Sequence record: KM389302.1 | Direction: 5' to 3' (one strand) | Source: Escherichia phage CBA6 | DNA: 25,398 bases | The notes under the pieces: model-generated | The model's database searches: none | The model's input: the letters and a program-made list of their open reading frames with translations, nothing else | What the model was told of the DNA's origin: nothing | Shown here: in pieces, positions 1-24,957 of the stretch | Position numbering within the stretch: the stretch's first letter is position 1 | How the letters are laid out: every line of letters starts with the position of its first letter | Made by a program: the position numbers and the translations under genes

Positions 1-19
1 ACCGAACCCAGGGAGATGC

Positions 20-2152
20 TCAGTTCCAGATGGAGTGTCTCCCCACGACTAAACCACCAAATGGGAATACTTGTTGTGACTCAGTCGAAGACATTCTATT
101 TCTCATGTCTTGGGAAATACTGGTAGAAGTCAGATCACTGAACCATTCTTGTTTAACTGCCCAAGAATATAATACCAACGGCATAACGCAGTCGTCGTGA
201 CATCCATCATCTGCTTCATAACGCGCACCACGGAACACGAATGTGCTGAGTTCATCTATCGTGTCTTGATCTTCAATCACCAACATTTCTTTCTCAATAA
301 GCGCTTTCAGGTTAGCACAACCAATAGATCGCACTTTCCTGTTGGTGTTAATGCCTGGCTCTGGTTTACGACCACCAATCCGTTTCCCTGTCCCTTTGTT
401 ATCCGTCGACGTGAATATGATCTCTGGATACTCAATTTCTTGATACAAGATCGTGATAACCTGACCACCAACGTCGTTATTCGTCTCGACAAGGACAGGG
501 CATTCCCCGTATTCAGTACACATATCAGCTATCGTGTATGCATACATCATCGGAGGTATTGTATTGTTCCTGTACTTGGCCGCTATGACATGCGGGTATT
601 CCGTTATATCTAGAATTGTCAGAACCGAATAATCTCCTTCAACACCTTTCCCCGTATCTGCGATCCCGAAGTAGATGCGTTGCGGGTCATATTCCTTGTA
701 AATTTTGGTGAACTCATTAGGCTCTCGATATAACTTGGATGTCATTTTATCCAAGCATTTGGCTGGTATCAATGAACCTACAGAACCACGGAACTTGATT
801 CCAAATTCCTGGTCAAAACGGGCATCCCCCAGACGAGCGCGTTGTTTGGTTTCCCAATCAGGGTCTTTGGTGTACGCCGGAACCTTGTACCAAGGGACTT
901 CGGTAAGATGGAAATCGTTGTATTGTGGATGGCGCGGGTCTGCTTTGGTGACGATATCATAGAACAACCCTCGCTGGCCTTTCGGAGTACTGGTCAGAAT
1001 ACAACGTGAAGTATCGGCAGATGCGATCGCTGGGAATGTTGACTCCCAAAATTCAAAGTCATTTTCGATGAACGCGACTTCGTCCACGTACAAGAGAGAT
1101 ACAGAACGACCACGAATAGAGTCCGAAGACGTTGCATAAGCATATATCTTAGAGCCGTTCTCAAATTCTATCAGTGTAGAACCAAACTTCTCACAACCCT
1201 GCTGAAGGAAGAATGGGAGGTCCTGATACGCTTTCCTGATACGATCAAGAATTTCAATCGCTTGTTTCTCTTTGTTTGCCAGTACCGCGATTTCTTTGTC
1301 TGAGTGGAACATCGCATACCAAAGAAGAAACGCAGCCACGACCGTGGTATTATGGCTGAGGAACCCATTCGTGTAATAACGTTGATCGCTGGACTTGACT
1401 TGCAAGTCATACATGTGGTGGTACTCACCAGTCTCCCAGATCTCAGAGATGAATTCTATTCCCTCCTGGGTCATTATGGCATCTCCGGCCTCCATGTCTT
1501 TAGCAAATACTTCGCGCCCATATTCATTGAAGAACATGTGCTCATCTGCGACATGAATTGTGCGTCCGGTTTCAGTCCTGACCACGTATTCAGCGTATTC
1601 TTTCGTTTTATGAGCGGCAATAACCGGAACCCAGCCAGTGTCGGACTCAACAAAATATCGTTTCCCGAAACGGCTGTCTACAAACTTATTGTGGTTGCCA
1701 ATGGTATTCAGTGGCACAGCATGGTTCGGTCCTTCGAAGCGCTTGTGAAGCTCTTCTATGGTGAGATGCAACTCTTGTTGACTGACTGTATCATAGACAT
1801 AAACAAGAGTATCACCACGGACGCATTTACCGGACTGACGCGCCTGGACAACGGCATTGAAACGATAATCTTGAAAATCGTGAAATAATTGTTTCTGATA
1901 ATCATGCATATCGAAAAGGATAAAGCCTTTATCGATTGTCGTTATCTTGTAGTAATTGGCAGCGAAGTAATGTGCGTCCATTGAACATTCAACAAATTCG
2001 TCTTCTTGTTCATCTGTTAGCATCAACTCGACTCGTGGAGCGCGCACAGAAGGCTTGCGCATGAACGTCTGGTCCATACGCAATTTCACGTCGTCGATTT
2101 TAAACCCCGTTTTTATCGGAGCATATTCTATATCACGCTTCTGATACGCCAT
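20..2152 (-). CDS. terL: Terminase large subunit (T4 gp17-like ATPase/nuclease), interrupted in frame by a mini-intein
   Basis: 710-aa ORF. Walker A reads QARQSGK-[intein]-TTVVAAF, Walker B-like LLYVDEVAF, and LTSTPKGQRGLFYDIV resembles the T4 gp17 TTTPNG region. Start overlaps the end of the upstream small-subunit gene. Confidence 0.9.
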   Translation of the reverse strand: MAYQKRDIEYAPIKTGFKIDDVKLRMDQTFMRKPSVRAPRVELMLTDEQEDEFVECSMDAHYFAANYYKITTIDKGFILFDMHDYQKQLFHDFQDYRFNAVVQARQSGKCVRGDTLVYVYDTVSQQELHLTIEELHKRFEGPNHAVPLNTIGNHNKFVDSRFGKRYFVESDTGWVPVIAAHKTKEYAEYVVRTETGRTIHVADEHMFFNEYGREVFAKDMEAGDAIMTQEGIEFISEIWETGEYHHMYDLQVKSSDQRYYTNGFLSHNTTVVAAFLLWYAMFHSDKEIAVLANKEKQAIEILDRIRKAYQDLPFFLQQGCEKFGSTLIEFENGSKIYAYATSSDSIRGRSVSLLYVDEVAFIENDFEFWESTFPAIASADTSRCILTSTPKGQRGLFYDIVTKADPRHPQYNDFHLTEVPWYKVPAYTKDPDWETKQRARLGDARFDQEFGIKFRGSVGSLIPAKCLDKMTSKLYREPNEFTKIYKEYDPQRIYFGIADTGKGVEGDYSVLTILDITEYPHVIAAKYRNNTIPPMMYAYTIADMCTEYGECPVLVETNNDVGGQVITILYQEIEYPEIIFTSTDNKGTGKRIGGRKPEPGINTNRKVRSIGCANLKALIEKEMLVIEDQDTIDELSTFVFRGARYEADDGCHDDCVMPLVLYSWAVKQEWFSDLTSTSISQDMRNRMSSTESQQVFPFGGLVVGRHSIWN
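1349..1825 (-). other. Mini-intein (159 aa, Hint domain only) inserted in the terminase P-loop
   Basis: Insert begins with Cys straight after GK (codon tgc at 1823-1825 on the minus strand) and ends with His-Asn followed by Thr (codons checked at 1346-1354). C-terminal YDLQVKSSDQRYYTNGFLSHN matches intein blocks F/G. Removing it restores GKT. Too short to hold a homing endonuclease domain. Confidence 0.8.
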
Positions 2153-3516: not shown

Positions 3517-4158
3517 TTATTCCCCGAAGTCTATCTTCATTTTATTGGGCGAAAGATCTTTCTCTATTTCGTCCGCAAATTGGTTATCTGTCTGTAGACT
3601 GGCATCTTTATAGACACCATCGCCGTCTAGATCTTGTAAACGTTTATCGATGTCGTCAATTTCAGATACACCAGTATCAAAATCTTCATTACCATATTGG
3701 AACAACGTGCACGGTAAGGAATATGTGTACCATTTACCGAATTGCATAAATTCTTCGTCGTTATTCGGGTTATTCACTTTGAATATCTTGTTCGCCATTG
3801 GGAGGTATATCAAATCACCTTCTTGAGGCATCTGCTCAAGTCCTGGCCCATTACCAATCACTTCCGAAAAACGGCGACGAGCAATGGTGAACGTCACTTC
3901 ATCTTGTAATTGAATACCGCCAAACTTCTCCCACATTTGGGTGTTAAAGCCTTGGTAATCTTGCATGTATACTTCGATATCGAACGCCTGGTCGAATTTA
4001 TGTTCAGCCTCGTTTAAAATTGGGTATTTTTCAACGATGGAACGTGGAATATACTTGACGTCAATCCCACGTAGTTGTATCATCTCGACCACCAAGTCGT
4101 CAATTAATTTCTGAGTACCTTGGTGTGCTGTATAGTTGAAATATTTTGAAGTAGCCAT
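3517..4158 (-). CDS. Neck protein (gp14-like)
   Basis: 213-aa ORF in the expected position; GAGGG Shine-Dalgarno 8 nt upstream of the ATG. Called by gene order. Confidence 0.55.
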   Translation of the reverse strand: MATSKYFNYTAHQGTQKLIDDLVVEMIQLRGIDVKYIPRSIVEKYPILNEAEHKFDQAFDIEVYMQDYQGFNTQMWEKFGGIQLQDEVTFTIARRRFSEVIGNGPGLEQMPQEGDLIYLPMANKIFKVNNPNNDEEFMQFGKWYTYSLPCTLFQYGNEDFDTGVSEIDDIDKRLQDLDGDGVYKDASLQTDNQFADEIEKDLSPNKMKIDFGE

Positions 4159-4181
4159 GACTTTACCCTCAATTTTGAAGG

Positions 4182-4188
4182 TATTTAG
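4182..4188 (-). promoter_or_regulatory. Candidate late promoter element CTAAATA (variant of T4 TATAAATA) upstream of the gp14-like gene
   Basis: Minus strand reads tgaCTAAATAcc 23 nt upstream of the ATG at 4158. The same heptamer recurs upstream of five other late genes. Confidence 0.4.
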
Positions 4189-4219
4189 TCAATCATTAAT
4201 TCTTTTGAGGAATTGATAA

Positions 4220-4432
4220 ATGAAGGTTGAAGATATTAAAGAAACTCGTGACGGAAGGCGTGTGAGAATTATCTGTGTGGATGCTAAAGTCGCAAATAAT
4301 TCTTATAACATTGTGGGTCTTATTAAAGGCAAAGATGGGAATGATTTTATTGAATGGTGGGATGAAAAGAACGTGGTTGATGGTTATATTCTAGCAAATT
4401 CAAATCCTTCCGACCGTGACATCAAGTTATAA
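4220..4432 (+). CDS. Hypothetical 70-aa protein on the opposite strand, inserted between the neck genes
   Basis: GAGGA Shine-Dalgarno 9 nt upstream of the ATG at 4220. Stop is followed directly by the hairpin at 4438-4457. It is the only complete plus-strand gene in the module. Confidence 0.55.
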   Translation: MKVEDIKETRDGRRVRIICVDAKVANNSYNIVGLIKGKDGNDFIEWWDEKNVVDGYILANSNPSDRDIKL

Positions 4433-4437
4433 AAAGA

Positions 4438-4457
4438 AAGGCGGGTTATCCCGCCTT
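4438..4457. terminator. Bidirectional intrinsic terminator between convergent genes
   Basis: aaggcggg-ttat-cccgcctt, 8-bp GC-rich stem. On the minus strand it is followed by a U-rich tract (uucuuuuuau), directly after the gp13-like stop at 4461. Confidence 0.6.
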
Positions 4458-4460
4458 CTC

Positions 4461-5213
4461 TTATCCCATCATAAAATCGATAGGGTATTGCTGACCAGTA
4501 CGCAATTCTTCCTCCAACCGCTCTATCTCGGTCTCGGCCTCACTGAACATACTATCACCATCCAGTTCGATACCACCTGGGAGACGGATGCCTCTTGCCT
4601 TCTTAAGCACCTCTGCCCAACGGCGCTTAACCAATGCAGTCGCATACGCTTTCAACCACATGTCATTCCATGCTTCAGCGTTTTCTTCCGATTCGGGGTC
4701 GATATTCTGATAACAACGGAAAGCCAGAGTTTCATCAATGGTGGCAGCAAATTGCGGGTAAAGGCGTCGCTGGAACTTCTTGTACACAAAATTACGACGA
4801 ACATTCAAGACGCTTGTGATATCAGACAGGCGCTGTTGCATGGAAACGTAATCAATGAGACGAATAGACACAAGCGCCGCTTTTGGTACAAGCATGGCTT
4901 GGGCCATTTGCCATTGAGGAGTTGCCCAGTTTCCAATTGACTCAATAGGAGGTCCAGGGATAACTTCAATCACATCGTCAATATCTTCTGGGAATTCAAT
5001 ATAACCCTTGTCGATATCTTCTTGCTTAACTTGGTACAGGAAGAACGCATCTTGGCTACCGTCGCGATGATATTCCCAAAACTTCTGTAGAGCATCATCA
5101 ACAGCATCTTCTACTTGTGAACTGTCAAGGTTAATTTGGATGACCGGAGCGCCCAATTTACGCAAGACATAGTTCATAAAAGATTTCTTGTCGCGAATTT
5201 TATTGACGGCCAT
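4461..5213 (-). CDS. Neck protein (gp13-like)
   Basis: LRKLGAPVIQINL, WLKAYATALVKRRW and RLPGGIELDG...EIERLEEEL resemble recalled T4 gp13 segments. Chosen start is the ATG at 5213 with a GAGGGA Shine-Dalgarno; the longer listed ORF (from 5267) has no ribosome-binding site. Confidence 0.65.
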   Translation of the reverse strand: MAVNKIRDKKSFMNYVLRKLGAPVIQINLDSSQVEDAVDDALQKFWEYHRDGSQDAFFLYQVKQEDIDKGYIEFPEDIDDVIEVIPGPPIESIGNWATPQWQMAQAMLVPKAALVSIRLIDYVSMQQRLSDITSVLNVRRNFVYKKFQRRLYPQFAATIDETLAFRCYQNIDPESEENAEAWNDMWLKAYATALVKRRWAEVLKKARGIRLPGGIELDGDSMFSEAETEIERLEEELRTGQQYPIDFMMG

Positions 5214-5541
5214 TGTTATTCCCTCGTTGCTGCAAATCAGATACAGTAATCCGCAATGTGCGGACATCGTCTGATAGGCTGCTGCTATTGAGTTTTAACT
5301 CAGCCATATTTTGTTTGACATATGCGAGGTCTGTATTCATGATCGCCATGCGCTCACTCATGTCATTCACTTTTTGAAGGACCTGATCCATTTTATTAGA
5401 ATCTCGCTCCAATACATTCACGCGTGTTTCCATCCCACCCATAAACCAAAGGAACGACGCCGCCGAGACCAATGCAGAAGCCACGACAGCAGTCAAGATA
5501 CCACGGATATCAAGCCCAGATCTTTCAGCTTGCGTCGCCAT
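5200..5541 (-). CDS. Small protein with one N-terminal transmembrane helix and a coiled-coil C-terminal region
   Basis: 113 aa. Hydrophobic stretch ILTAVVASALVSAASFLWFMGG, then heptad-like charged sequence. Strong AGGAGG Shine-Dalgarno 5 nt upstream of the ATG. Overlaps the gp13-like start by 14 nt. Confidence 0.55.
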   Translation of the reverse strand: MATQAERSGLDIRGILTAVVASALVSAASFLWFMGGMETRVNVLERDSNKMDQVLQKVNDMSERMAIMNTDLAYVKQNMAELKLNSSSLSDDVRTLRITVSDLQQRGNNNGRQ

Positions 5542-5825: not shown

Positions 5826-8800
5826 TTATGCCAGAGCAATAAGACGGAAGTCTTTGAATGATGGAGGAGCAACGCGGTTCCCCCGTACAAGCGCTCGGAC
5901 TTTCAGGCCAACAAACGGGTTATTGCTCGCCACAGTCTTGTCGTATTCATATTCAAAGAATGTAGAACCGTCGTTGACCAGAGGCGACGTTGGAGTAACA
6001 TCTTCCCAAGCCACACTATCCATCTCCTGACCTGCTCTAAGAAGTTTCACCTGCACCTTCATAGAAGACTGAGATGGGAGCATTGCACCAAAGAACAACT
6101 TCACAGTCGAACATGGGTTATCAAATCCGATGTCTTTTGTAACATATTTGAAGACATCTTCAAATGGATCCACGCCGTATGAGTTGAAGATTACGCTCAG
6201 GTCATCGCCATCAATCATTGGAGCGGTGTACACGTTGTTTTCACTGCGCGTCATGGTGGCTCGGATCTGGAAATCCCCAACCTGACGATAGATCCCTTCA
6301 GTCGGCAACGCCACGTCAGTGTCAGTTTCAAATTCAGCCCAATCAGACATAGAATTGGAAGTAGCATCGCGATAGCGATATTCCAATTTCAGAATTGAAC
6401 CTTCCAGAGCTGAATTGGTGACACTGGCATAAAACATGTCAACCAGATAATTGCCCAAGAATGAAGCATTATCCCCGCCGATTTGCCCGTTGCTGTCTGC
6501 TGCTGAACCGACATCGATCTTGAATGAAGTATAGCTCGCATCTGTCACGGTAAATGTTTTGTTAAGTTGTTCAGGAGTAAATCCACAGCCACCTGTCAAT
6601 TCAGACAGAGTAACATTGTTCCCAGCAACCAAACCGTGACCAGGTGCAAACACGGTCACGACAGAAGACCCGCTCACACAGTTGAGAGTGTTCAATCCCA
6701 ACGGACGTTGTTTCGGTCCAAGTTTCGGATCAAATGTTACAACGTTCTGACCAGCAGCAAAGTTACAACGATAAACACGGAACTTCATATCTGCCATCTG
6801 GTTGGGAGACCATGTTGAACCGTTTGAAGAAGTGAAGAACACCCCTGTATACGGCTGCTTGGCGATATATTCGTTGGACAAAAGGTTTTTCTTGCCCATT
6901 TCCGCGATATATGCGTTGTAATCCTGAGTATTCGCCAACAAAACAATAGCAAACTCAGTCGATGCTTGCAAGTACACCGGATAATCGAAGGTGAACTTCG
7001 TTCCACCGGAAGAGTCTGTAGAGATCGTCACTTCAGACGGGTTCAAAGTTTTACGAGTTATGACGGTATGGGACGGTAATCCATTCTCCATCTCGCGAAT
7101 TTCCAGGGTGATCGGAACATCACGTGACTTGGTGGAGAAGAATACTTCCACGCCTTCGATATATTCACCACCGATCTTAGTTGCCACCATAAACGATTGG
7201 GCAATTGGATCACGCCATTGATCGACCACAACTTCAGAAGTGCTGGTTTCTGTGCTGGTGCTTGCGGTATAACCCAGAACACGAGTATTGACAAAGGTCT
7301 TTTGAATCCCTTGTTTCTTACCGAAAGACTTGTGAACAATTTCAGCATTAGTCAGCGTATCATCTGCAGATTTACTGTCAACAGGGCTATCCGTTAAGCG
7401 GAACACGTTGTCGCCTGTGTTGAATTTGATCGTATCATTCTGAGGAACGCGGAACACGCCTTTGACTGCGCCATTGGCATCAGTGGTGATTGGGTCACCA
7501 AAATTACCACCATTCGGCTTGCAATACAGATTCACATCACGACCTGAGAAGAATGCATACATGCGAGTGAAAGGTCGCAACCCAGAAGCGTCGAAAGAAA
7601 TATCAATTTCGCGCATGTATGGGATAACCTGCGTTTCCACAATCTGTTCGCCAGTCATGGTCGTGGTTGTTTTGTCCGTGTATGTGTATGTGGTGACATC
7701 ACGGGCAGAAACAGTCGTGCGATAGCGGTATCCCCACCACACACCACCAGCGCCATGCGGCTCCCAAACACGATCAGAAACAGAAACAGTACGCCACGTC
7801 CCGTACACCGAACCTTCTTGTACAGTACCACGAGTGTTGATCGTTTCATTGATAACACGCGGGGCGACATAGTAGTTTTCAAACCAGTAATCCGTGGTCG
7901 GGTTAATCTTCAAGAAACCTTCCCAGTTGAATACTGCATACGGGTTAACGTTGATCGTCGTCGTCGCGTATTCTTGGTTCACGGAGATTTCAGGCGTGTA
8001 GTTACAAACCACCATACCATCCATCACTTTGTTCCAGCCTACTGGAGTCATGTCAACGGCGTTCTGTTGAACAAACGGGCGCAAACGTCCATTTTCCGTA
8101 TCGATAGATCCCATCCAATCTTCAGACAGATCATCAATAAGACGGAAGTCTTTGAATGGATCGGCGGCGATACCGTTTTTGAATCGCGGATTACCCGTGA
8201 TTGGATCAAATACCTGTTGTGTCATCGCCGAAGATTCCAGCTGCGACAGAGAGGTGTAGTATTCAACGTTGGAAATACGCGTTTCCAGTTTACCGATATC
8301 ACGCATCGTATAACGACGGTTATCGATGGTGCGAATTTGTATATCATCGATATTCGGCGTGTATGGGGGAATCAACAGTTCATACAAACGCATGGAGTTT
8401 GCAGGTATTGCTGGGGACGCCAGGTTGTTGGAACTGATGCCACGGGCTACACCAAACACGCCATTATCTGCCAGATAAATCGCGTCGATACGAGGCAAAT
8501 AATACTCTGTGTCCAGGATGACAGCCGTATTCGGGCGAACCATATCAGTGTCGGATGTCCCGTTGGTAATTTTCGGACGGAAATCAAGGCTATCGGCCAA
8601 ACCATACACCGCCCCAGATGTAGAGGATGTATAATTCGGGATATCTTTGTAATCCATTGAAGTATACGAATCCGCTGAGAAGAAATCCCCCGAACTATGC
8701 GCGAAGTATTGATACACCACCGTATACGTCCCTGAAATGGCTCCAGCGGTGGATAACAGATTAGCCTTGTAATATCCCGCATCGCGTTGACCACCGTCGA

Positions 8801-10757: not shown

Positions 10758-12719
10758 TCAACCGATTGTGAGATTAAATTCCATTTCTGTTACGACTGCA
10801 GATGGATTGTATAACGTAATTGTCCACGAAAAATCGTTAGTTTTCGAAATGACACAATATCTTCCTGTGCCTGGGGAACTAAAAGATGCCGCTAATTTAT
10901 TCATGCTTGTAAATGAATTTATCACCCAAACACCAGGAGATGTCTTCGTTACCGAACAATTAACTGCACTCGTCAGAGCACCAGAACCATTTACAATCAC
11001 TGATATTGGTTCGTCCAGAATTCTAACCACTCCGGAGTTTAATGAATATGAATTCATAACAGTTCCAATACGATTTCCCTGTAAATATGTGATGGCAGTA
11101 GAAGCCAGTCCCGTTCTATTCAACAATACATTTGTAACTCCCAAACCAGTACAACCCAATATTTGTGTGTCAGACACTAATCCAGACGTGGTGCTGGTTT
11201 GTTCACAAACCGCGTCCACAACATTACTACCGTTGTAACAATTGAAAGATACATTTATCAATTTATTTCGTCGTATTGATTTGCCTGCATTAGATTGTAT
11301 CTGTAATACACGGTTATATTGGCCAGGTGTATTAATCTGCACAAAACAATTTTGAATAACATTGTCATAACTATCAGTTAATGAAACGTTATGGTCAGAA
11401 ATACCGAAAGCAGATTTATAATCTCCATTATTGTTCATTTGAATAAAAACACCTTCAACGGTGTTATTGCTACAACCTTGTATTGCTATGACGTGGTCAT
11501 TCCCGTTAAATGCTCCTGCGGAAATAGAAACAAATTTACCACCAATGATTTTGCAGCCAGAACAACCTCTGGAAAATTTGATATTATTGTTGCCGCCAAC
11601 GACACCACCGACGTCGCCCAAATTAGCAGAACTCATTATTCCTTCACAATTTATGAATTGGAAATCTGTGGTTGGGAATCCAACACCATCTGCTGACGTC
11701 CCATGGAAATTAATCAATAACCCATTTTCCGCATAACCTTCAGATACATAGCCACCTTTACAACCCAGAACCTCCATATTCCCGCCAGCTTGAGAAACTC
11801 CAACGAATCTCGGATATGTGATTTCTGGGTACAATGCACCTATAATAACAAGGTTCCCGTGATTTGGTCCTTTAAAACCTGTATTTTCAAATACACATTT
11901 GTTAGACCTAACCCCAACACGCCGAGAATTATCAGTTGAACCATAAGATGTGTTCCCCAATCTTAATGGGGTTACTGTTGCTGTGGTTGTCGTGAAGACT
12001 ACACCCGAAACTTCAGTATAATTTCCTGTTAATTCGATAGCCCCTTTATTCGTGTCAAACGAATTCCCCAACAAATTGATTTTGTTTCCGTTGCCAATGA
12101 TGCGTTTACTGTCTAAATTGTTCACCACGTTGCTCGACAACCCAACATCTATATCTAAAATGATCGTATTATACACATTTAGAAGATCATTCAATATATT
12201 TGAAACGTCTTCGCCAGAAGAAACCCAATTAGATATGTATGTTTCTTTCTCGCCAATATTATTTTTTACAAAAATCCAAGCTGAACCAGAAATACCACCA
12301 GTATTTTCCAACTTTTGGGTAGAGGGAACAATTTTTGGAAGAGACCCACCCCAACGATAAAAACAATTATTATGGCGTATCATTTCATTCTTAGTACGGA
12401 TTGTAAACCCATCTGAAAACTCTTCCGTCATTTCGATAAATTCGCCGCGCAATACAGCCAGCGCACCCAAATCTACAGTGCCTCCGGAGTGCGTGAGGAT
12501 GCCGTCGACTAAACTAGTGACCGTTACAGCACCAATGTTAGAAGGAAGAGCATAGGCACGTTGGGTCACCTTATCGTAGATCACTTTATAACCAGACAAG
12601 GACTGCCCTGATTTCGCATAAACGACTTCCGACTTTTTACACCCAAATTTACGAGCAATACTGTCTTTGTTCGATTCTTTTGAAGTAGAACCTTTTGGTT
12701 GAGCAAATTGCGGATTCAT
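10758..12719 (-). CDS. Tailspike protein, putative polysaccharide depolymerase (653 aa)
   Basis: N-terminal module (ARKFGCKKSEVVYA...YKVIYDKVTQRAY...YRWGGSLPK) is shared with the other tailspikes. The rest is N/G/S/T-rich with short repeats typical of a parallel beta-helix. AGGAG Shine-Dalgarno. Confidence 0.7.
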   Translation of the reverse strand: MNPQFAQPKGSTSKESNKDSIARKFGCKKSEVVYAKSGQSLSGYKVIYDKVTQRAYALPSNIGAVTVTSLVDGILTHSGGTVDLGALAVLRGEFIEMTEEFSDGFTIRTKNEMIRHNNCFYRWGGSLPKIVPSTQKLENTGGISGSAWIFVKNNIGEKETYISNWVSSGEDVSNILNDLLNVYNTIILDIDVGLSSNVVNNLDSKRIIGNGNKINLLGNSFDTNKGAIELTGNYTEVSGVVFTTTTATVTPLRLGNTSYGSTDNSRRVGVRSNKCVFENTGFKGPNHGNLVIIGALYPEITYPRFVGVSQAGGNMEVLGCKGGYVSEGYAENGLLINFHGTSADGVGFPTTDFQFINCEGIMSSANLGDVGGVVGGNNNIKFSRGCSGCKIIGGKFVSISAGAFNGNDHVIAIQGCSNNTVEGVFIQMNNNGDYKSAFGISDHNVSLTDSYDNVIQNCFVQINTPGQYNRVLQIQSNAGKSIRRNKLINVSFNCYNGSNVVDAVCEQTSTTSGLVSDTQILGCTGLGVTNVLLNRTGLASTAITYLQGNRIGTVMNSYSLNSGVVRILDEPISVIVNGSGALTSAVNCSVTKTSPGVWVINSFTSMNKLAASFSSPGTGRYCVISKTNDFSWTITLYNPSAVVTEMEFNLTIG

Positions 12720-12773: not shown

Positions 12774-15554
12774 TTAAATAGAAGAATCCAATATACGGTA
12801 ACTAATTAACTTATTAGGGTCTACAGGATTAATCAGGTTGTAGTACCGTGAAGCTACATAATCATTCTCAGAAGAGAACATACCAACATACACTTTAGCA
12901 CCTACACCAGAACAGGCATCCCCACCAGCATTGCTATCCGAGAAGAATGTTAATGAAGAAGTTAATCCGAATATAGAATTAAATGGTACAGCTAAATAAG
13001 CGCCTCGGAATGACCGTCTGATTCTCTTACCCGTCTGAATATTAAGAATACTCCACCAGAAATATCCAGGTTTAGCACCAATAGCTATATGATATGGCAC
13101 ACCACTTTGTAGTTTAAGGTCGTTAGGTAAATCCCCAGATAAAATTTGGGTTGTACCATCGCCCCCCAATAGCAAAGCAATTGTTTGTTTTCCGGAAGCG
13201 TCTATAACTAATTGAAGATGAAGACTGTTGGATGTATCACTAAACCCTGAACCAATGGCCATGAAGTTAAATACTTCAGCTCCAGATATGGTAGGTACTA
13301 CAACAGCAGCCATGGTAATACCTTCTGGACCTGCTGTTCTTGAGTACAGTAATTTATCTTTGTTGGCTTGTGATAGTCTCAGACCATTTACTTGCCCTAC
13401 AGAAGATGGGACACTTACATAAACAGGTGTAGTGCTAACACCATCAAATGTAGGGGTCTCGTTCATGGTTTGCAAACCAGTCTTGGAATAATTAACCAAT
13501 CCGTTAATGCTCAGGTCGGAATTTGTGGGGTTGATAATATTGTTATCACCAATAAAGTTAATGCCCATATAACCAGTCTCAACCACACCATTAATGGTGA
13601 CGCTGCAATCATTAGACAGGAACTGAAAATTGCCCGCACTAGAGTTAGCACCTGAACCACTATTCGCGGCATAATTGAGTCCTACGAATCCGTTGATAAC
13701 TGCATCACTTTTGTTAAATACGATGTTGTAGAAAGTGTTGTTAGCGTTGATGCCGTTACGATTGGTGTTCAATCCGTTCATGGAAATTGAATATGAATCG
13801 CTAATCTCAATGCCATTCCCGCCACAATCTTGTACCTCAATACCATTAATAACCATATTCTGGCTATTATTAATAGTAATGCCTGGGAACTGTCCTACTG
13901 TACCATAAGGTTGCCAGTTAGCCCAAATGAATTTACCACCAATAATACGACCATTACCACAACCATCAAGAACCAGACATTGTTTACCGCAGGTATTAAC
14001 CTGGATATTTGTCCAAGTCCAATCAGTAGTAGCACAACGGACGCCCACCTGATTGATGTGGTTGACTAAAAGAGAATCTGTAGTAACACTAAAGTTACCA
14101 CTATCAATATTTAACCCATATTCATCAAAACCTGCTATATGGACCTTAGAAATACACAAGTCGCGTCTTGGGTCTGCGGTAGTGTGGAACGGATAATCAG
14201 CTGAGAGACCTGAAGGAGTTTCTATATAGATACCTGTTGTACCCGCAGTAAATGATGTGCCTTGTTGTGCACCTGTGCCATATACCCCAAAGGAGTCTAA
14301 TACAATAAGGGAGCATGTATCTTTTATGGTAATACAATTCCCAGTAGCAGAAGGCAACTGATGCAACCTGGAGTAATGTAATCCAGACCCATAAATAGAC
14401 GACGTATTATATTTTAACCGGATATTGCTAACGTAATGTACACCAGTTAATTGTGTGGCCTTACCACTGTCCACACAAGATTGTACTGGAATAGTATCAT
14501 CATTAGAACCGCCCAAAGCACCAAACATGAATGGGTTAACTCTATCAGCATTAACACGTAACCAGGCTGCGCCTCCAACAGTTTTGATCACAGTGCCGTT
14601 ATCATCAGTCTTTCCTGTACCATCAATTAACGCACGGAATACCCCTCCACCAAGAAGAGTACCCGCAGTGTGTTGCTTAAGAATAATGCGTTGTCCATCC
14701 ATAGTGGGTTCAGTATTCCTGAGATCAGCAACAGAATGGCATTCTCCGATATACTTGGCACCATCATTGCGCCCCAGAGTGTTTATCACATTAATAAATG
14801 AATCTTCTAAAGGCAACAAATCCACTACAACATTACCTGGATTATAAGTAAGTTGCCCATTACTAACAGAAGAAATCACTGAACCATCAGGGATAGTTGG
14901 TAAACCATAAATAATCTGCGCCGCTGAATCATAAACAACTTTCTTGTCGTCGAGTAAAGATATGGTATCAGTGCTGACAATGACTTCAGAGTCTTTTACG
15001 TTAGCCGAACGGGCAATTTCTTGGATACTGCGATCGAACGCCGGACTGATGTTCGGTTGTTTAACAGACATCTCCGCAACAACCCACACCCCTGCAGTCA
15101 GCGCAGTTTGTAAGGAAACTTTCCCAGTCGTACTGTTGTATGAATATTCTATATCAGGAGTTTTGTACTCACCACCGATATAAAGAGACTGGACACCATA
15201 AGAAGTAAAGTCAGGCGTGAATTCAGTTTCTCCACCCACGGCTTGAAATTTGTATATTCGAATACCTTTAGAAGTATCTTCTGGTGAAAGAATTTTATCG
15301 AATAAGCAATACACAACATCGCCTTTGGACAATGCGCGCCCGAGATTCAACGTATTCCCGTCTATCTCGAAGTTGTCTAACGGAACTTGCATGCCGCCGT
15401 TAATTGTGATAACACCAGTGACAGGATAGAAAGGTAGAGAAAAGAAAGTTTCTCCACCGACACTTGATTTATAAGTGAAAGGAATCTGGTGGGGAGCTGT
15501 GACTACGCCGCCGAATAATTCTTCTACATTTCTGGTCATTTGAAAATACCCCAT
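12774..15554 (-). CDS. Tailspike protein with a T7 gp17-like N-terminal anchor domain and beta-helix body (926 aa)
   Basis: N-terminus IPFTYKSSVGGETFFSLPFYPVTGVITINGGMQVPLDNFEIDGNTLNLG fits the pattern of podovirus tail-fibre N-terminal anchors. Central region has tandem NG-rich beta-helix coils. The start may instead be the second ATG at 15539 (MTRNVEE...). Confidence 0.7.
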   Translation of the reverse strand: MGYFQMTRNVEELFGGVVTAPHQIPFTYKSSVGGETFFSLPFYPVTGVITINGGMQVPLDNFEIDGNTLNLGRALSKGDVVYCLFDKILSPEDTSKGIRIYKFQAVGGETEFTPDFTSYGVQSLYIGGEYKTPDIEYSYNSTTGKVSLQTALTAGVWVVAEMSVKQPNISPAFDRSIQEIARSANVKDSEVIVSTDTISLLDDKKVVYDSAAQIIYGLPTIPDGSVISSVSNGQLTYNPGNVVVDLLPLEDSFINVINTLGRNDGAKYIGECHSVADLRNTEPTMDGQRIILKQHTAGTLLGGGVFRALIDGTGKTDDNGTVIKTVGGAAWLRVNADRVNPFMFGALGGSNDDTIPVQSCVDSGKATQLTGVHYVSNIRLKYNTSSIYGSGLHYSRLHQLPSATGNCITIKDTCSLIVLDSFGVYGTGAQQGTSFTAGTTGIYIETPSGLSADYPFHTTADPRRDLCISKVHIAGFDEYGLNIDSGNFSVTTDSLLVNHINQVGVRCATTDWTWTNIQVNTCGKQCLVLDGCGNGRIIGGKFIWANWQPYGTVGQFPGITINNSQNMVINGIEVQDCGGNGIEISDSYSISMNGLNTNRNGINANNTFYNIVFNKSDAVINGFVGLNYAANSGSGANSSAGNFQFLSNDCSVTINGVVETGYMGINFIGDNNIINPTNSDLSINGLVNYSKTGLQTMNETPTFDGVSTTPVYVSVPSSVGQVNGLRLSQANKDKLLYSRTAGPEGITMAAVVVPTISGAEVFNFMAIGSGFSDTSNSLHLQLVIDASGKQTIALLLGGDGTTQILSGDLPNDLKLQSGVPYHIAIGAKPGYFWWSILNIQTGKRIRRSFRGAYLAVPFNSIFGLTSSLTFFSDSNAGGDACSGVGAKVYVGMFSSENDYVASRYYNLINPVDPNKLISYRILDSSI

Positions 15555-15640
15555 AAAGGATTTGCCAATATGGGGTATTTAGTCTGAACTAATAAAATTT
15601 TATGAACAAAGGTATGATAAAAACCCCGCCGAAGCGGGGT
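15548..15640. repeat. About 90-bp intergenic cassette, copy A
   Basis: Near-identical to 17678-17770. Contains a palindrome (aaatacccca / tggggtattt), the CTAAATA motif, and the UUCG-loop terminator. Confidence 0.8.
15576..15582 (-). promoter_or_regulatory. Candidate late promoter element CTAAATA upstream of the 926-aa tailspike gene
   Basis: Minus strand reads cagaCTAAATAcccc, 21-36 nt upstream of the candidate ATGs. Confidence 0.4.
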
Positions 15641-17673: not shown

Positions 17674-17706
17674 GATAATGCCCCATAAAGGATGACCAAT
17701 ATGGGG

Positions 17707-17713
17707 TATTTAG
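17707..17713 (-). promoter_or_regulatory. Candidate late promoter element CTAAATA upstream of the 675-aa tailspike gene
   Basis: Minus strand reads cagaCTAAATAcccc, 33 nt upstream of the ATG at 17673. Confidence 0.4.
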
Positions 17714-21051: not shown

Positions 21052-21088
21052 TTGTAATACCCCTAAATGTATTCATGTCATCTAGGGG

Positions 21089-21095
21089 TATTTAG
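21089..21095 (-). promoter_or_regulatory. Candidate late promoter element CTAAATA upstream of the gp10-like core tailspike gene
   Basis: Minus strand reads aaaaCTAAATAcccctagatgacatgaatacatttaggggtattacaaATG, with a tacccct(a) / (t)aggggta palindrome. Confidence 0.4.
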
Positions 21096-24910: not shown

Positions 24911-24950
24911 GATAATCTCCATCACCTGAGTTTGAATATGGTGTTGAAGA

Positions 24951-24957
24951 TATTTAG
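24951..24957 (-). promoter_or_regulatory. Candidate late promoter element CTAAATA upstream of the gp6-like gene
   Basis: Minus strand reads ctttggCTAAATAtcttc, about 40 nt upstream of the ATG at 24910. Confidence 0.35.

Follow-up and report, generated by a model that had tools for sequence, protein, structure and literature searches.

A conserved reverse-oriented gene between the gp13-like and gp14-like neck genes of enterobacterial Ackermannviridae and its predicted SH3-like product

The gene and its neighbours

The window, by which we mean the whole 25,398-nucleotide stretch of Escherichia phage CBA6 (KM389302.1) that was analysed, carries a plus-strand ORF for a 70-aa protein between the genes for the gp13-like and gp14-like neck proteins (Table 1). 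A 2-kb stretch around the ORF shows 99.8% identity to Escherichia phage KEP4 and 99.5% to Salmonella phage Vi01. With this stretch as query, similar DNA was found in 238 phage records, nearly all from Ackermannviridae, which identifies the window as late structural DNA of a Kuttervirus. The minus-strand gene order begins with the large terminase, small terminase, gp15, gp14 and gp13 genes and continues with two small virion genes, the gene for a 1612-aa VrlC-like protein, and the tailspike and baseplate genes. The 302-nt gap at 4159..4460 is the only large break between minus-strand genes in that part of the window. The ORF fills it and is therefore not a shadow ORF; it is the sole credible plus-strand gene of the window.

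Table 1. Positions of the neck genes, the ORF and the predicted control elements in the window
Feature	Position	Strand	Remarks
gp14-like neck protein gene (head closure Hc2)	3517..4158	-	PF11649, E 1.2e-26; PHROG 679; adjoins the start side of the ORF
Divergent control region between the gp14 and ORF start codons, 61 nt	4159..4219		Nearly invariant across genera
Predicted 5'-terminal stem-loop of the gp14 late mRNA	4165..4182	-	-7.8 kcal/mol
Late-promoter motif CTAAATA, predicted to drive gp14	4182..4188	-	Motif match
Shine-Dalgarno sequence GAGGA of the ORF	4207..4211	+	8 nt before the ATG of the ORF
ORF, 70-aa protein-coding gene, ATG to TAA (stop codon included)	4220..4432	+	Product identical to Vi01_165; PHROG 4466
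Bidirectional intrinsic terminator hairpin common to the ORF and the gp13 operon	4437..4458	both	Folding
gp13-like neck protein gene (head-tail adaptor Ad2)	4461..5267	-	PHROG 211; longest ORF given, the Vi01 annotation being a 250-aa form that starts at ~5213
Stem-loops following CTAAATA	4165..4182, ~15548..15576, ~17680..17707, ~21059..21089, ~24915..24951	-	Folding

The ORF is the same gene as Vi01_165 (YP_004327536.1), whose protein is 100% identical and which has the same position and orientation. It matches the PHROG 4466 HMM over its full length (E 5.5e-43, residues 1-70 on profile positions 1-70 of 70). Between genera, pS for the ORF is 0.77-0.91 and pN 0.14-0.34, i.e., the synonymous sites are saturated whereas the protein is conserved, and dN/dS is 0.16 between Kuttervirus and Taipeivirus, the sole unsaturated comparison. 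These values show that the ORF is coding and under purifying selection. In the family of 31 homologues, 29 residues are invariant, most of them within the N-terminal 47. Invariant positions at the surface are E4, D5, K7, E8, R10, R14, R16, K23, K36, E45, W46, W47, D67 and K69. The Shine-Dalgarno stretch of the ORF, TTGAGGAAT, is invariant across four genera. Short ORFs are common, and the window holds 72 ORFs of at least 60 aa in its six frames. The chance that this one is spurious, an accidental open frame or an annotation artefact, is nevertheless practically nil: the dN/dS value together with saturated synonymous sites effectively refutes such a reading, and the conserved ribosome-binding site, the confident AF2 fold and the 85 representative homologue clusters described below also speak against it. 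The plus-strand gene, its own ribosome-binding site and a shared terminator, all proposed in an earlier note on the same DNA, were thus confirmed.

Several other features of the region deserve mention. The large terminase gene, at 20..2152 on the minus strand, contains a mini-intein-like insert of ~159 aa (1349..1825, minus strand) that spans C110 to N268, is followed by T269, and interrupts the Walker A motif as QSGK/T. Its Pfam Intein_splicing match, at 27.2 bits, is below threshold. The large terminase of Erwinia phage Bue1 is without the insert and is 80% identical on both flanks of the insert site. In SenALZ1/selz, a NUMOD3 homing-endonuclease gene (1..433 of the stretch taken from that phage) stands beside the small terminase gene, at the place that the large terminase gene takes in the window, and Vi01 has a GIY-YIG gene between its tube and sheath genes. 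In Ackermannviridae, the terminase region thus seems to be a favoured site of selfish elements. Two more lone plus-strand genes, Vi01_136 and Vi01_141, were seen at 7600..7944 and 11281..11901 of the 85-135 kb stretch of Vi01, both inside the same 48-kb minus-strand block as the ORF. Reverse-oriented single genes at operon boundaries therefore recur in the Vi01 genome.

Transcription signals around the gene

The convergent stop codons of the ORF and gp13 are 28 nt apart, and a GC-rich hairpin occupies almost all of this space. Its folding energy is -17.7 kcal/mol on the plus strand and -18.9 kcal/mol on the minus strand, no shuffled sequence was as stable, and it is flanked by an A-run and, on the opposite side, a T-rich run. 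The hairpin is found at the same place in every genus with differing stem sequences, GGCGGG/CCCGCC in the window, GCCGGG/CCCGGC in Taipeivirus and Limestonevirus, and GAGGGGC/GCCCCTC in Bue1. An Rfam search over the ORF region returned no family at the gathering score, its sub-threshold matches being to the terminator hairpin only.

The motif CTAAATA, often followed by CCCC, lies directly upstream of six minus-strand genes of the window, including gp14, and fits a T4-type late promoter. For five of the six, a stem-loop starts at the last A of the motif (Table 1). These stem-loops typically have the form ACCCC...GGGGU, with energies of -7.8 to -15.5 kcal/mol compared with about -5 for shuffled sequences, and they are probably the 5'-terminal hairpins of late mRNAs. 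The one at gp14 has the gp14 Shine-Dalgarno sequence, GAGGG (4166..4170), as its 3' arm. Within the 61-nt region between the gp14 and ORF start codons, the block TACCCTCAATTTTGAAGGTATTTAGTC does not vary among four genera with saturated synonymous sites, because the late promoter of gp14 and the 5' stem-loop containing its Shine-Dalgarno sequence occupy it. With the hairpin closing the gp13 unit and a late promoter of its own opening the gp14 unit, the two genes are placed in separate late transcription units.

A promoter for the ORF itself was sought and not located, the sigma-70-like candidates being weak or overlapping conserved gp14 codons. The ORF strand has no CTAAATA; the intergenic region has one copy, on the minus strand, serving gp14. 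A sigma-70-like pair read by eye, TTGAAG at 4175..4180 and AATTCT at 4198..4203, is weak and would leave almost no leader. A promoter scan gave, as a further candidate, TTGACG-17-TATCAT at 4055..4083, inside gp14; its -10 element differs from genus to genus and coincides with conserved codons of gp14. No motif common to the upstream regions of the ORF and of Vi01_136 and Vi01_141 was found. Nor could the strand serve as a proxy for the timing of ORF expression, the minus strand of Vi01 carrying both the late genes and the genes for replication (gp45, clamp loader, helicase, UvsY).

Distribution and insertion history

The ORF has an unchanged position and orientation in Kuttervirus (Vi01, Sajous1, SenALZ1), Agtrevirus (Gloob), Taipeivirus (Magnus), Limestonevirus (phiD3), phage CRW-SP2, which is an unclassified member of the Aglimvirinae, and the distant Nezavisimistyvirus Bue1 of Erwinia. 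At the distance of Bue1, the largest tested, gp14 is 56% and the core of the ORF product 49% identical. Using tblastn, the ORF was detected in 289 phage records; with Vibrio and Erwinia records removed, there are ~271, against 272 records with a gp14 of at least 80% identity. Its orthologues, assembled in PHROG 4466 ("unknown function"), include Sajous1 gp144, SenALZ1/selz gp045, LIMEstone1 ORF153 and Magnus_056, and none of the records examined assigns a function to them. The gap between the neck genes had been described in the earlier note as a typical site for accessory genes. The distribution of the ORF is not that of a variable accessory gene: its record count matches that of gp14, it is present in Bue1, and it is kept in eight of eight genome-reduced derivatives of selz (see below). 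The gene is indeed present in all enterobacterial relatives, and no housekeeping homologue was found.

The gene content of Vibrio phage D528, whose record names no family and which we class as Ackermannviridae-like by its conserved neck-gene order, bears on the origin of this arrangement. Its gp13 and gp14 genes are adjacent without the ORF, and the 60-bp gap between them holds a strong terminator followed directly by CCTAAATAT, giving the order terminator, then late promoter. Because both elements are present in D528 without the ORF, the junction between them predates it. By this comparison, the ORF was inserted exactly between the gp13 terminator and the gp14 late promoter, and now uses the terminator from the opposite direction. 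We propose that an ancestor of the enterobacterial Ackermannviridae acquired it, in reversed orientation, at this slot between the gp13 and gp14 operons, and that it has since stayed fixed there. The earlier note had also attributed the division of gp13 and gp14 into separate transcripts to the ORF; the division itself agrees with the CTAAATA motif before gp14, and its attribution to the ORF does not agree with D528, where terminator and promoter already adjoin.

The same comparison bears on whether the ORF has any role through its protein. It might instead act in cis, its transcription or its spacing insulating or tuning the gp13 and gp14 units, or be a near-neutral passenger locked in place by the adjacent terminator and promoter. 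The tight packing would be compatible with this, with the hairpin filling the space between the convergent stops and the divergent region overlapping the gp14 promoter, 5' hairpin and Shine-Dalgarno sequence. However, selection acts on the protein sequence and not on the DNA alone, and the terminator-promoter pair of D528 exists without any ORF, which makes a cis role or passenger status highly improbable.

A gene insertion between the neck genes of LIMEstone1 was noted in 2012 by Adriaenssens et al. (PMC3296691). It is at the same locus, and the ORF of the window corresponds to the second of the two genes there. Limestonevirus thus has an additional upstream gene, whereas Kuttervirus has a single gene in the gap. 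In Dickeya phage phiD3, this extra plus-strand gene, at 725..1432 of the stretch taken from that genome, lies between gp14 and the ORF and encodes CapR and MUG113/T5orf172 (GIY-YIG-like) domains. After it, at 1425..1500, the gp14 start codons and the conserved intergenic block recur as a duplicated remnant. The extra gene together with the duplicated block looks like the footprint of a mobile-gene insertion. The extra gene entered the gap later than the ORF did, and the single-gene form of Kuttervirus is probably ancestral.

In base composition, the ORF of Vi01 has the lowest GC3 (0.32) and the lowest GC (0.37) among the 50 genes analysed in a 50-kb region, a rank that places it beside the tailspike and homing-endonuclease genes. 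Elsewhere, in Agtrevirus, Limestonevirus and Taipeivirus, the GC3 of the ORF follows that of the adjoining genes, and recent transfer, as the low GC3 of Vi01 might suggest, was therefore rejected.

A weakly similar domain (E 1e-4 to 4e-3) was seen in Campanilevirus phages of Vibrio, where it forms the C-terminus of a 210-aa protein. The gene for this protein, at 4614..5246 of the stretch from Vibrio phage GR28A and 4584..5216 of that from Vibrio phage YC, is directly upstream of a phage GroEL gene and distant from the neck genes. The N-terminal 130 residues of the protein gave no family match.

Predicted product and possible role

The product of the ORF has a mass of 8.0 kDa and a pI of 5.3, values that set it apart from strongly acidic DNA mimics and from basic nucleic-acid binders. 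An AF2 model built from a 31-sequence alignment is all-beta, with a pLDDT of 89 and a pTM of 0.74, and the product is predicted from it to be an SH3/Tudor-like beta-barrel. Small barrels of this kind that bind proteins or nucleic acids, i.e., the RNA-polymerase-interacting domain of CarD/Mfd, the KOW domain of NusG, and PipX, would be the nearest comparison by fold class. With the model as query, Foldseek found nothing at E <1 in the PDB, and among viral models (BFVD) it found other uncharacterised phage proteins only. A profile search of PDB sequences gave chance-level matches only (E 0.28 or worse). Pfam gave no match for the ORF, nor for P0037, a protein annotated with PF26890, so that the Pfam set used was probably without a PF26890 model. 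No weak Pfam family recurred consistently over 40 domain instances at E up to 5, and no nuclease or DNA-binding domain (GIY-YIG, HNH, LAGLIDADG, T5orf172) was found in the ORF by Pfam. PADLOC and the PDB sequence and fold searches gave no link to a known defence or anti-defence family.

A profile search with the ORF family returned 85 representative clusters with a domain of ~75 aa, which occurs alone, in tandem two to three times, or with other extensions. Many of these wider relatives are annotated PF26890.1 (Phage_HP1_YO09), an uncharacterised family named for an ORF of Haemophilus phage HP1 that is itself uncharacterised; for all Ackermannviridae ORF clusters, the precomputed Pfam entry is blank. 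Searching with the ORF-family profile alone recovers proteins annotated PF26890 at E 2e-10, and alignment of both groups with hhalign gave 98.7% probability and E 3e-16 over 56 columns of the N-terminal domain. The likeness includes the motif T-R-D-G-R-x-V-R-I ... Y-P-I-V-G-L ... D-L. Judged by these profile matches, the ORF appears to be a remote stand-alone copy of the PF26890 N-terminal domain. PF26890 proteins have ~115-135 residues with a C-terminal half of ~55, whereas the ORF is without this half and ends at the DL, at residue 70. The earlier note had stated that no function can be read from the sequence, which is so for the biochemical role; fold and family, by contrast, are now defined.

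The genomic setting of the wider relatives differs from that of the ORF. They are co-directional with their neighbours and lie in replication or early regions, whereas the ORF is reversed between neck genes. Their neighbours encode DnaB/primase, PolA, 5'-3' exonuclease, UvrD helicase, SSB, integrase, HTH regulators and hmdU kinase, and none of the contexts examined placed a wider relative in a structural module.

The virion proteomes of two phages bear on whether the protein is part of the particle. In Sajous1, gp142, gp143, gp145 and gp146 were detected and gp144, the ORF product, is not listed (PMC10892097). In LIMEstone1, ORF151 and ORF154 (gp14 and gp13) were found and the inserted ORF152 and ORF153 were not (PMC3296691). 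The product is predicted to give four tryptic peptides of 7-16 residues. From this negative evidence for an 8-kDa protein in two proteomes, we infer that it is not a virion protein.

The position of the gene raises the alternative that it encodes an assembly factor for the neck or head completion, acting on gp13/gp14 as a chaperone or in timing, or else a virion component of low copy number, encoded beside its clients. Its linkage to gp13 and gp14 is unbroken in all enterobacterial genera despite saturated synonymous sites, its near-invariant control region is held in common with gp14 and overlaps the late promoter of that gene, and its core is about as conserved as gp14 in the comparison with Bue1. 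The stable linkage in all genera could thus reflect a neck-related role. Against this are the lack of the late-promoter motif on the ORF strand, the absence of the product from two virion proteomes in which both neighbours were detected, the Vibrio members that build the same neck module without the ORF, and the location of all wider relatives in replication or early modules. We consider a role in the neck distinctly unlikely.

Evidence on the requirement for the gene comes from a CRISPR-based genome reduction of phage selz, in which 179 of 201 genes were targeted, annotated structural genes being excluded, and 64 of the 201 were deleted or disrupted in isolated mutants (PMC9825161). Phage selz is identical to SenALZ1, where the ORF is gene 45. 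In all eight GenBank records of genome-reduced selz/SenALZ1 derivatives, of 118.6-143.6 kb, the ORF is retained with 100% identity. As support for a role in growth, this retention is suggestive only, and it could mean no more than that the ORF was not targeted or was not editable. Searches of the literature for transcriptomics or anti-defence screens of Ackermannviridae found nothing relevant.

A further alternative is that the ORF encodes an accessory anti-defence or host-takeover factor, expressed apart from the late genes and neutralising a host immunity or housekeeping protein. A small, non-virion protein encoded in reverse within an inter-operon gap, with its own signals and with relatives in arrays of small early genes, would suit such a role, as would the GC3 value in Vi01 and the second, selfish-looking gene that the Limestonevirus gap has taken in. 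However, the ORF is universal and keeps its synteny across at least five genera, whose hosts include Salmonella, Escherichia, Klebsiella, Dickeya and Erwinia, and the N-terminal two-thirds of its product are near-invariant, whereas counter-defence genes are usually variable and patchy. It was kept in every minimised selz phage, all of them propagated on a single laboratory host, a search with the defence-system models of PADLOC gave no match, and the tracking of neighbouring GC3 in other genera argues against a recent import. The anti-defence reading is unlikely and weakly supported.

We tentatively favour the reading that the product is a conserved, non-structural, cytoplasmic SH3-like binding protein encoded by a fixed core gene of the enterobacterial Ackermannviridae. 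On this reading, the ORF is a genuine monocistronic gene, and its product, an 8-kDa, near-neutral, all-beta barrel of SH3/Tudor type with a single PF26890-type N-terminal domain, would act outside the virion as a cytoplasmic binding module. Its partner would be either conserved across many host genera or encoded by the phage. By analogy with the wider relatives, a role on the replication or early side of infection may be more likely than one in the particle, and the gene would probably aid ordinary lytic growth and not strain-specific counter-defence. The descriptive part, namely that the gene is real, its anatomy, its synteny, its fold class and its family link, is held with high confidence; we infer the non-structural role, the binding mechanism and the importance for growth.

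A stronger form of this reading, in which the ORF is an essential, clade-specific, non-structural core factor of the enterobacterial Ackermannviridae, is very unlikely. One possibility within it would be an SH3/Tudor-like adaptor binding host RNA polymerase, or some other host machine that is universally conserved; another would be a factor by which the neck operons are coupled to the expression of late genes. If either were true, the PF26890-type domain, widespread in phage early regions, would gain its first function.

Hypothetical-protein annotation in hundreds of records, a PHROG of unknown function and the 2012 remark on the insertion were already known. The reconstructed insertion into an ancestral terminator-promoter gap, the clade-wide fixation, the predicted fold class and the N-terminal link to PF26890 are new. 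The finding is real but ordinary, and no surprising system is involved.

Kutterviruses and their relatives are widely used candidates for biocontrol and therapy against Salmonella, E. coli O157, Klebsiella and Dickeya. The ORF is universal in the clade and was kept in every sequenced minimised derivative, which makes it a reasonable target for knockout and interaction studies. Any function found for it would at the same time provide an annotation for the PF26890-type domain family of many phages and prophages. The gp13-gp14 gap has taken one gene in most genera and two in Limestonevirus, and is thus a candidate payload site for engineered phages.
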